Numbered from the stretch's first letter, positions 17,349 through 28,896 are shown. The stretch: DNA of 64,000 nt from Escherichia coli (GCF_003790525.1 NZ_CP033635.1); one strand, 5' to 3'. Numbers and translations are program-made. The notes: a model not told the origin generated them from the sequence alone.

Positions 17349-18128
17349 TTAGTAGCTGCTGGCGCTCTTACCGTCGCCGTGGCCCAGAGCTTTCAGCAGG
17401 CTTGCCAGCAAGCTGGAAGCACCAAAGCGGTAGTGACGCGCATCAGCCCAGTCAGCACCGAACAGTTCATCGGCGATGGAGAGATATTTCTGCGCATCTT
17501 CCGCAGTACGCACGCCGCCCGCCGGTTTGAAACCAACGGTTTTTTCTACGCCCATATCGCGGATCACTTCCATCATGATGCGCGCGCTTTCCGGCGTCGC
17601 ATTCACAGCCACTTTACCGGTAGAGGTTTTGATGAAGTCAGCACCCGCTTTGATGGAGATTTCAGACGCTTTACGGATCAGCGCTTCGTCTTTCAGTTCT
17701 CCGGTTTCAATAATCACTTTCAGCAGGACGTTCGCCGCAGCGCAAGCCTCTTTACAGGCTTTCACCAGGTCAAAACCAACCTGCTCGTTACCCGCCATCA
17801 GCGCGCGGTACGGGAACACCACGTCAACTTCATCGGCACCGTAGGCGATTGCCGCACGGGTTTCTGCCAGCGCGATTTCGATGTCGTCGTTACCGTGTGG
17901 GAAGTTAGTTACCGTAGCGATACGGATTTCCGGGGTGCCCTGCTCTTTCAGAGTTTTGCGAGCAATCGGGATAAAGCGAGGATAGATACAGATAGCGGCG
18001 GTATTGCCGACCGGAGTTTTGGCCTGATGACACAGGGCGATCACTTTCTCATCGGTGTCGTCGTCATTCAGGGTGGTCAGGTCCATCAATTTCAGTGCAC
18101 GCAGGCTGCTTGCTTTCAGATCAGTCAT
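17349..18128 (-). CDS. deoC: Deoxyribose-phosphate aldolase DeoC
   Basis: ORF track 17349..18152; conserved start [33 protein letters not shown]. Confidence 0.95.
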
Positions 18129-18172
18129 TTCATTCTCCTGGCTTGTCGCCAATAAAATTCACCTTGCGAGTT

Positions 18173-18188
18173 TGTTAGTATTCTAACA
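18173..18188. promoter_or_regulatory. DeoR operator O2 at deo promoter P2
   Basis: 16-bp near-palindrome TGTTAGTATTCTAACA about 45 bp upstream of deoC start. Confidence 0.7.
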
Positions 18189-18192
18189 TCTA

Positions 18193-18280
18193 CTCCGCAA
18201 CACACTTCGATGTACATCACAATTAAGGAAATCTACTTACAAGTTTGCATCACTGTAATGCGATCTGGTTCAAATAATTC
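18193..18280. promoter_or_regulatory. deoP2 CRP/CytR control region (approximate)
   Basis: Minus-strand reads TTGTGATGTACATCGAAGTGTGTT and TTTGAACCAGATCGCATTACAGTGATGCA, resembling the tandem CRP sites of deoP2; boundaries approximate. Confidence 0.45.
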
Positions 18281-18385
18281 ACTTTCAAATGAATGCGTCA
18301 GTGGTGGCAAACGCATCAGGATCAAAGTGAACATCACGAAACTTCTTACAATGGCGCATCACCTTCGGCATAAAAGGAAAAGAAG

Positions 18386-19936
18386 ATGCCCACTTCTCAT
18401 GAAAATGCACTGCAACAACGTTGCCAGCAAATTGTCACCAGCCCGGTACTTAGCCCGGAGCAGAAGCGCCATTTTCTGGCACTGGAAGCAGAAAACAATC
18501 TGCCTTACCCCGCGTTGCCTGCCGAAGCCCGCCGCGCACTGGATGAGGGTGTAATCTGCGATATGTTTGAAGGTCATGCGCCGTACAAACCGCGCTATGT
18601 CTTACCCGATTACGCCCGTTTTCTGGCGAACGGTTCCGAATGGCTGGAGCTGGAAGGCGCGAAAGATCTTGATGACGCACTCTCTCTGCTGACCATTCTT
18701 TACCACCACGTACCGTCGGTCACATCGATGCCGGTCTACCTGGGGCAACTGGATGCGTTGTTGCAACCGTATGTTAGAATTCTAACACAAGACGAGATCG
18801 ATATTCGAATAAAACGTTTCTGGCGTTACCTCGACAGAACCCTGCCAGACGCCTTTATGCACGCCAATATCGGCCCGTCTGATTCGCCCATCACCCGTGC
18901 AATCTTACGTGCAGATGCAGAGCTGAAGCAGGTTTCACCAAACCTGACCTTTATCTACGATCCTGAAATCACCCCTGATGACCTGCTGCTGGAAGTGGCG
19001 AAGAACATCTGTGAATGTAGCAAACCGCACATCGCCAACGGTCCGGTGCATGATAAAATTTTCACAAAAGGGGGCTACGGGATTGTGAGCTGTTACAACT
19101 CACTGCCGCTGGCGGGTGGTGGCAGCACGCTGGTACGCCTAAACCTGAAAGCCATTGCCGAGCGCAGTGAATCGCTGGAGGACTTCTTTACGCGCACTCT
19201 ACCGCACTACTGCCAACAGCAGATCGCCATCATCGATGCGCGGTGTGAATTCCTCTATCAACAATCACACTTCTTTGAGAATAGCTTCCTGGTGAAAGAA
19301 GGGCTGATTAACCCTGAACGTTTTGTGCCAATGTTTGGCATGTACGGACTGGCGGAAGCAGTTAACTTACTGTGTGAGAAAGAAGGAATTGTCGCACGTT
19401 ACGGTAAAGAAGCCACCGCAAATGAAGTGGGTTATCGCATCAGCGCGCAACTGGCGGAGTTTGTCGCCAATACCCCTGTGAAATATGGCTGGCAAAAACG
19501 CGCCATGTTACACGCACAGTCGGGGATCAGTTCCGATATCGGCACCACGCCGGGCGCGCGTTTACCATATGGCGATGAGCCAGATCCGATTACCCATCTG
19601 CAAACTGTCGCGCCGCATCATGCTTATTATTATTCCGGCATCAGCGACATTCTGACGCTCGACGAAACCATCAAACGTAATCCGCAGGCGCTGGTACAGC
19701 TTTGCCTCGGTGCCTTTAAAGCCGGAATGCGTGAATTTACCGCCAATGTCAGCGGTAACGATCTGGTTCGCGTTACCGGTTATATGGTGCGTTTGTCGGA
19801 TTTAGAAAAATATCGCGCCGAAGGTTCACGCACCAACACCACCTGGCTGGGAGAAGAAGCCGCACGCAACACTCGTATTCTGGAACGTCAGCCGCGCGTG
19901 ATAAGCCATGAACAGCAGATGCGCTTTAGTCAGTAA
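18386..19936 (+). CDS. yjjI: Glycine-radical-enzyme-like protein YjjI
   Basis: 516-aa [45 protein letters not shown]; matches YjjI. Confidence 0.9.
18772..18787. promoter_or_regulatory. DeoR operator O1 (deo promoter P1), located inside the yjjI reading frame
   Basis: Perfect 16-bp palindrome TGTTAGAATTCTAACA, centre about 599 bp from the O2 palindrome. Confidence 0.7.
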
Positions 19937-20771
19937 GATTATCCCCTTCTCCTGCGTTGACGGGCCAGGCAGTCGTCTGGCTCTGTTTTTGCAGGGCTGC
20001 AATCTGCGCTGCAAAAACTGTCACAATCCGTGGACGATGGGGCGCTGTAATGATTGCGGAGAGTGCGTGCCGCAGTGTCCGCATCAGGCGTTGCAGATTA
20101 TCGAAGGCAAAGTGGCGTGGAGCGCGGCTGTTTGCGAGCAATGTGATACCTGCCTGAAGATGTGCCCGCAACATGCCACGCCAATGGCGCAATCCATGAG
20201 CGTGGACGAGGTGCTTAACCATGTCCGCAAAGCGGTGCTGTTTATTGAAGGGATAACGGTAAGCGGCGGCGAAGCCACGACCCAGTTGCCGTTTGTGGTG
20301 GCGCTGTTTACTGCCATCAAAAACGATCCGCAACTGTGCCATCTCACCTGCCTCGTGGACAGTAACGGCATGTTGAGCGAAACCGGCTGGGAAAAATTGC
20401 TCCCGGTGTGTGACGGCGCAATGCTCGATCTCAAAGCGTGGGGGAGCGAATGTCATCAGCAATTAACCGGACGCGATAATCAGCAGATCAAGCGCAGCAT
20501 CTGTTTGCTGGCAGAGCGCGGTAAGCTGGCGGAACTGCGTTTGCTGGTAATCCCTGGCCAGGTGGATTATTTGCAACACATCGAAGAACTGGCGGCGTTA
20601 ATCAAGGGACTTGGCGATGTTCCGGTACGCCTGAACGCGTTTCATGCCCACGGCGTGTATGGCGAGGCGCAAAGCTGGCCGAGCGCCACGCCGGAGGATG
20701 TGGAACAACTGGCTGATGCGTTACGGGAGCGCGGGGTGAGTCGGTTAATATTTCCGGCGCTATATTTGTGA
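19908..20771 (+). CDS. yjjW: Radical-SAM glycyl-radical-enzyme activase YjjW
   Basis: 287-aa ORF with cysteine-rich motifs CKNCHNPW and [12 protein letters not shown]; overlaps yjjI end by 29 nt. Confidence 0.85.
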
Positions 20772-28809: not shown

Positions 28810-28896
28810 GCGAAGGTGGCGGAATTGGTAGACGCGCTAGCTTCAGGTGTTAGTGTTCTTACGGACGTGGGGGTTCAAGTCCCCCCCCTCGCACCA
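28810..28896 (+). tRNA. leuP: tRNA-Leu (anticodon CAG), copy 2; variable-arm variant GTTCTT instead of GTCCTT
   Basis: 87-nt tRNA-Leu sequence ending in CCA; one-base difference to copy 3 in the variable arm. Confidence 0.9.

Follow-up and report, generated by a model that had tools for sequence, protein, structure and literature searches.

The divergent deoC-yjjI region of Escherichia coli is, with high confidence, the classical deoCABD control region, with promoter P1 and the DeoR operators O1 and OE lying inside yjjI, where the same DNA is both coding and regulatory. The analysis covered a window of 64,000 nucleotides, by which we mean the whole stretch of E. coli DNA that was studied. Wherever deoC and yjjI adjoin, the control elements are found intact, at the right spacing and under selection. 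From the literature on K-12, DeoR would be expected to bind and loop the DNA in this strain too, and the promoters to be active. Three-operator looping at deo is textbook knowledge, known since the 1980s, and nothing is added here on deo regulation itself; what is mildly new is only that the double constraint on yjjI, coding and regulatory, is put into numbers. The placement of P1, O1 and OE inside the yjjI coding sequence, together with their synonymous-site conservation, is not discussed in the available portions of the deo-region literature cited here.

Operators and promoters of the deoCABD control region

In a comparison with complete E. coli genomes, the segment 17300-20000 was 100% identical to the chromosome of E. 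coli SMS-3-5 and was found in 5423 of 5426 genomes. Three complete genomes are entirely without the segment, and 3 of its 5426 matching places are on records labelled plasmids. According to the RefSeq annotation of the SMS-3-5 record, deoD-deoB-deoA-deoC is on the minus strand, and deoC (17349-18128, minus strand; deoxyribose-phosphate aldolase, TIGR00126 match 3.4e-88), the first gene of deoCABD, has its ATG at 18128. The divergent gene yjjI (18386-19936, plus strand) encodes a YjjI-family glycine radical enzyme of 516 aa, as annotated in RefSeq and supported by homologues and TIGR04040; its ATG is at 18386, leaving a spacer of 257 bp to deoC. The activase of YjjI is encoded by yjjW (19908-20771, plus strand; RefSeq, TIGR04041 match 2.5e-119), which overlaps the 3' end of yjjI by 29 nt. 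Third-position conservation is raised at yjjI codons 507-516, as expected of overlapping frames, yjjW starting 29 nt before the yjjI stop (19908-19936).

We searched the 64-kb window with TGTTAGAATTCTAACA as the query, allowing up to 3 and then up to 4 mismatches. With up to 3 mismatches, O1 and O2 were the sole two matches (0.22 expected by chance). O2 (18173-18188) begins 44 bp upstream of the deoC ATG and reads TGTTAGTATTCTAACA, one mismatch away from a perfect palindrome, or TGTTAGAATACTAACA on the minus strand. O1 (18772-18787), TGTTAGAATTCTAACA, is a perfect palindrome beginning 386 nt into the yjjI ORF, and the two are 599 bp apart from start to start (18772 - 18173), upstream of deoC. 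On the minus strand each contains an extended -10, TGTTAGAAT, taken as that of P1 within O1 and as that of P2 overlapping O2. Both operators fit the 16-bp palindrome TGTTAGAA(T/A)(T/A)CTAACA, and on the deo (minus) strand their sequences, TGTTAGAATTCTAACA and TGTTAGAATACTAACA, are identical to the published DeoR operators TGTTAGAA-TACTAACA and TGTTAGAA-TTCTAACA, as PMC5326754 quotes them from Valentin-Hansen 1986 and Dandanell 1987. The distance between deoP1 and deoP2 has been given as 599 bp, with both promoters locked by a single DeoR loop (PMC3334521), and O1 and O2 have been described as about 600 bp apart at tandem promoters, with DeoR loops visible in the electron microscope and also measured in vivo (PMC8053113).

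The same sites are found in K-12 MG1655, where O2, O1 and OE are at 4617263-78, 4616664-79 and 4616385-400 with sequences and relative positions identical to those in the window; of the 17 base differences between the two strains in 18100-19140, none is in O1, O2 or OE. The system is thus the same as the deoCABD region of E. coli K-12, with identical operators, 599-bp and 279-bp spacings and position relative to deoC, and the strain being SMS-3-5 instead makes no difference to the elements themselves. Among the E. coli variants sampled, the most divergent one has 3 SNPs in the 60-bp stretch around O1, none of them in O1 or in the block 18806-18823 described below. A sequence-only reading of this DNA had proposed two palindromes at 18173-18188 and 18772-18787, 599 bp apart, the proximal one about 45 bp upstream of deoC and the distal one perfect and about 390 bp inside yjjI, and had named them O2 and O1 of DeoR. 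The mismatch search of the 64 kb and the measured offsets (44 bp and 386 nt) bear out the positions, and the names agree with the operators in PMC5326754, with the spacing in PMC3334521 and PMC8053113 and with the identical K-12 sites.

That reading had not confidently found the third operator, OE, which we now locate at 19051-19066 through the search with up to 4 mismatches combined with conservation. The search returned 5 sites in the 64-kb window (1.7 expected), 3 of which, including OE, cluster within 900 bp here. OE (TGATAAAATTTTCACA, 12/16 matches) lies upstream of O1, at distances of 279 bp from it and 878 bp from O2, and it covers yjjI codons 222 (third base) to 227 in the same codon phase as O1. 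The other sites with up to 4 mismatches, at 28848 (inside a tRNA-Leu gene) and 31975 (in the yjjP-yjjQ spacer), are at chance level. By sequence alone, at 12/16, the candidate OE is indistinguishable from chance, and position and conservation are what support its assignment. From established knowledge and secondary sources, 279 bp is also the figure expected for OE in the deo region. The literature puts the third site, OE, roughly 300 bp further up than O1 (PMC8053113), and a 945-bp 'deoP1P2' fragment is used in expression vectors (PMC5351984). Consistent with the place found for OE, this fragment would end just past it, assuming the deoC ATG as its other end.

The start of P2 is predicted near 18173 on the minus strand, because two CRP sites would then centre at -40.5 and -93.5, which is the known geometry of deoP2 with its CRP/CytR architecture. 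By symmetry with P2, the start of P1 is predicted near 18772 on the same strand. CRP site 1 of deoP2 (18206-18221, minus strand), TGTGATGTACATCGAA, was read from the sequence and is kept in the intergenic alignment. The motif TTTGAACCAGATCGCA (18259-18274, minus strand), read in the same way, is 53 bp from CRP site 1 and partly conserved in that alignment; from the established deoP2 CRP/CytR architecture we take it to be CRP site 2. In ETEC, a CRP ChIP-seq peak located between yjjI and deoC is reported to cover a site equal to CRP site 1 (PMC4287617). A generic sigma-70 promoter scan called neither P1 nor P2; because both are without a good -35 and rely on the extended -10, the scan is uninformative rather than contrary.

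Next to O1, a synonymous-site conserved block, CGAATAAAACGTTTCTGG (18806-18823, minus strand; yjjI codons 141-146), ranks 6th of 511 in third-position conservation and contains the rare codons CGA and ATA. Its place directly ahead of the P1 -10 makes it the probable -35/UP-like region of this promoter. A CRP ChIP-seq peak within yjjI is also reported in ETEC, over the motif CGTACCGTCGGTCACA (PMC4287617). This motif, at 18712-18727, follows the predicted P1 start by about 45-60 nt, and we dropped it as part of the conserved apparatus because its third codon positions are not conserved; the CRP ChIP signal there may come from cross-linking through the loop and not from a site under selection. 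RNA folding of the 644-nt P1 leader (z = -2.35) gave nothing specific to interpret.

Conservation of the embedded sites across genera

The comparative set consisted of 81 yjjI sequences, namely the window and 80 further loci with one genome per species, with a median nucleotide identity to the window of 79.5%. Apart from Proteus, all loci that include the upstream flank have deoC as the divergent neighbour. O1 was found at the fixed offset of +386 in 80 of the 81 sequences, as a perfect palindrome in 57, as TGTTAAAATTCTAACA in 14 and with 1-2 changes in the rest. OE is identical in 66/81 sequences and has 1-2 changes in 14 more. Third-codon-position conservation was scored in 511 six-codon windows of yjjI (gene mean 0.646). 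The O1 codons, with a score of 0.984, rank first of the 511 and the second-ranking window overlaps O1, while the OE codons rank third; the conservation at O1 and OE was reached by none of 20000 shuffles. Rare codons are found at both O1 (AGA131, CTA133) and the block 18806-18823 (CGA141, ATA142), and 3 of the 7 AGA, CTA and ATA codons of yjjI lie within codons 129-146. Another stretch, TTCTTTGAGAATAGCTTCCTG (19271-19291, yjjI codons 296-302), ranks 10th of 511 in third-position conservation across the 81 sequences, and it contains TTTGAGAAT, which resembles an operator half-site and the -10 TGTTAGAAT.

All loci in which deoC adjoins yjjI have an O2-like site at the same relative position; it shows up to 3 mismatches in most of them and 4-5 in Kluyvera, Yokenella, Pluralibacter, Hafnia and Edwardsiella. 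Because of these more divergent sites, three-site looping may not be identical in all genera. The O1-O2 spacing varies between 567 and 675 bp across genera; a loop of this length probably does not depend on exact helical phasing. The O1-OE distance is a constant 279 bp because the reading frame fixes it. The Hafnia and Edwardsiella loci (L074, L075, L077, L079) have a deoC-yjjI spacer of 457-473 bp versus about 257 bp, and their best O2-like site, with 4-5 mismatches, is 184-218 bp from the deoC ATG, while O1 and OE persist with 1-2 changes. In these two genera the layout of the P2 region seems to be different.

A natural control is provided by 9 yjjI loci without deoC nearby, from Proteus, two Providencia, Moellerella and five members of four more distant lineages. 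O1 and OE were absent in 9/9 of these loci: the O1 position shows 8-13 mismatches, and the OE position, where alignable, 6-14. In the control lineages the peptide encoded in place of O1 is Y-V-G-x-L-T or similar, from DNA that is quite unlike the operator. Within the YjjI family, DeoR sites occur only in the Enterobacteriaceae and Hafniaceae copies beside deoC. The comparison extends to the protein. Residue 131 is Gly in the lineages without the operator, and Hafnia and Edwardsiella, which have deoC as the neighbour, keep Gly131 as GGA, which is why their O1 has one mismatch. In Enterobacteriaceae, residue 131 is mostly Arg (AGA) or Lys (AAA) and the palindrome is perfect or near perfect. From these sequence comparisons, the operator appears to have shaped the YjjI protein (Gly to Arg/Lys at residue 131) and not just its codons.

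The surroundings of the distant yjjI-yjjW pairs were also compared. A yjjW-type activase gene is directly downstream in the loci of full-length distant homologues, and in a fourth, short contig the downstream gene is without a family hit. The gene neighbours of these pairs are unrelated to nucleoside metabolism, with one nupC-like exception in Moellerella, and the adjacency of yjjI to deoC looks like lineage-specific synteny. In Moellerella wisconsensis (L084, 2647-5554), a gene for a NupC-family nucleoside transporter is located 79 bp upstream of yjjI on the same strand. This is a second, independent association of YjjI with nucleoside genes; the neighbours in the other lineages are unrelated.

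Alternative readings of the embedded sites

The sequence-only reading had placed P1 and O1 within the yjjI coding sequence and had allowed that the yjjI start might be over-called, in which case the true gene would begin downstream of O1 and the deo elements would be intergenic. Some database entries are indeed shorter, for example 402-aa products starting at Met115. Nevertheless, Met115 (ATG at 18728) is still upstream of O1, and OE, at codon 222, is coding under any start. Homologues from Salmonella, Citrobacter, Enterobacter, Kosakonia, Edwardsiella, Proteus, Providencia and Moellerella align with YjjI over about 100% of its 516 residues, and their N-termini are highly conserved. Residues 13-128 are among the best conserved in the family, and the N-terminal 130 residues are kept in homologues down to about 35-40% identity, the alignments of distant homologues (35-58% identity) beginning at residues 7-22. 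The TIGR04040 profile matches YjjI residues 11-504 along positions 1-497 of its 497, with 786.9 bits against a curated cut-off of 498.3. Conservation at codon positions 1, 2 and 3 (0.92, 0.94 and 0.65 in the 81 sequences) has the pattern of a coding sequence throughout, and since this is the signature of a coding gene, yjjI is translated across the sites. Homology thus places the start well upstream of O1 and not downstream of 18787, so that O1 spans codons 129 (third base) to 134, (TA)T GTT AGA ATT CTA ACA, of a genuine full-length coding sequence, and an over-called start is almost certainly wrong. The 402-aa entries (Met115, 18728) themselves look like a mis-called start, because residues 11-114 are conserved family-wide.

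It is also very improbable that the palindromes just look like DeoR sites and owe their conservation to yjjI itself (its protein, codon preference or mRNA structure). Conservation of Y129, V130 and T134 within the protein family would suit such an explanation, but the third positions are fixed, the codons include rare ones, and the DNA remains operator-like even where residue 131 changes (R, K, G, I). Moreover, yjjI genes away from deoC encode similar peptides with DNA that is 8-13 mismatches off, and the sequences in the window equal experimentally defined operators.

A separate question is whether the embedded elements also control yjjI-yjjW. A putative yjjI promoter (18319-18352, plus strand) consists of an FNR half-site, GGATCAAA (18319-18326), and a -10, TACAAT (18347-18352), both invariant in the 10 genera aligned. 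The two are separated by about 20-21 bp, which would fit a class II FNR promoter for yjjI with a start near 18360. An FNR ChIP peak is reported about 93 bp upstream of the yjjI ATG, with yjjI FNR-activated and its start site listed as unknown (PMC3688515), FNR activation of yjjI is also reported in PMC2634741, and yjjI/yjjW are described as FNR-activated and expressed (PMC3688515, PMC2634741, PMC6643234). DeoR could act on these genes as a roadblock at O1/OE or by trapping the promoter in the O2-O1 loop, which would place yjjI in the DeoR regulon, and transcription from P1, antisense through the first 387 nt of yjjI, could collide with the yjjI promoter. The sequence-only reading had likewise suggested that yjjI transcription and deo regulation might disturb one another, which is plausible. 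We regard this cross-control as possible, though doubtful. The points in its favour are those of geometry: the putative promoter lies between O2 and O1; O1 and OE are within transcribed yjjI, in the path of its polymerase; and the P1 transcript would be fully complementary to the yjjI 5' UTR and codons 1-129. The putative promoter and the first 680 nt of yjjI are inside the predicted O2-O1-OE loops, and the arrangement is conserved across Enterobacteriaceae and Hafniaceae. Against this, the conserved arrangement is fully explained by deo regulation and ordinary synteny, and the distant yjjI-yjjW pairs with unrelated neighbours indicate that a tie to nucleoside catabolism is not needed. None of the 29 open papers mentioning yjjI names it in the title; in the portions available they deal with FNR, CRP, HU and expression clustering, yjjI is reported only as FNR-activated, and no DeoR expression link was found there.

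Dual use of yjjI and its meaning

The embedded control elements are best explained as follows. Tandem promoters P1 and P2 on the minus strand would each carry a 16-bp DeoR operator over the extended -10 and the start site. Multimeric DeoR would bind pairs of sites, or all three, so that the DNA between them loops and both promoters are shut. Deoxyribose-5-phosphate would release DeoR, and P2 would additionally be under CRP and CytR. DeoR binding and looping and the relief of repression by deoxyribose-5-phosphate have been described in K-12, whose sites are identical to those of the window (PMC8053113, PMC4217526, PMC5326754). P1, O1 and OE fall inside the yjjI frame (codons 129-146 and 222-227) because yjjI starts only 257 bp from deoC. 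The same DNA thus encodes a conserved part of an FNR-activated glycine radical enzyme and carries the deo control elements, and selection on these elements fixes synonymous positions and forces the rare codons AGA, CTA, CGA and ATA.

Auxiliary looping operators within coding sequence are known from lac, with operator O2 inside lacZ, and from gal, with operator OI inside galE. The likeness to deo is a repressor looping site in a coding region, with a double constraint on the DNA. The difference is that the lac and gal sites lie past the promoter in a gene of the very operon that they regulate, whereas at deo two operators and a whole promoter are in a different, divergent gene with its own regulator, FNR. 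The host gene is a full-length member of the YjjI/YjjW family (TIGR04040, TIGR04041, PF11230) with its activase gene overlapping the 3' end.

In yjjI there is a clearly delimited natural case in which a complete promoter and two operators sit inside the frame of another gene. The synonymous footprint is strong enough for blind detection (ranks 1 and 3 of 511), the yjjI genes without deoC offer a built-in negative control, and the costs to the host gene are visible as rare codons and as Gly to Arg/Lys at residue 131. The locus is a good calibration case for methods that seek hidden regulatory elements in coding regions. It also calls for caution, as recoding, codon-optimising or deleting yjjI may disturb deo control.

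For YjjI itself, an orphan enzyme, the arrangement raises the testable question of cross-regulation by DeoR or by P1 activity. Judging from the layout of the sites, DeoR and deoxynucleoside availability might gate YjjI/YjjW by roadblock, loop trapping or convergent transcription, which would make yjjIW an unrecognised and mechanistically unusual member of the DeoR regulon, a proposal that we consider rather unlikely. If it is true, YjjI might act on a nucleoside-derived substrate, a suggestion that can be compared with the nupC-like transporter gene directly upstream of yjjI in Moellerella.
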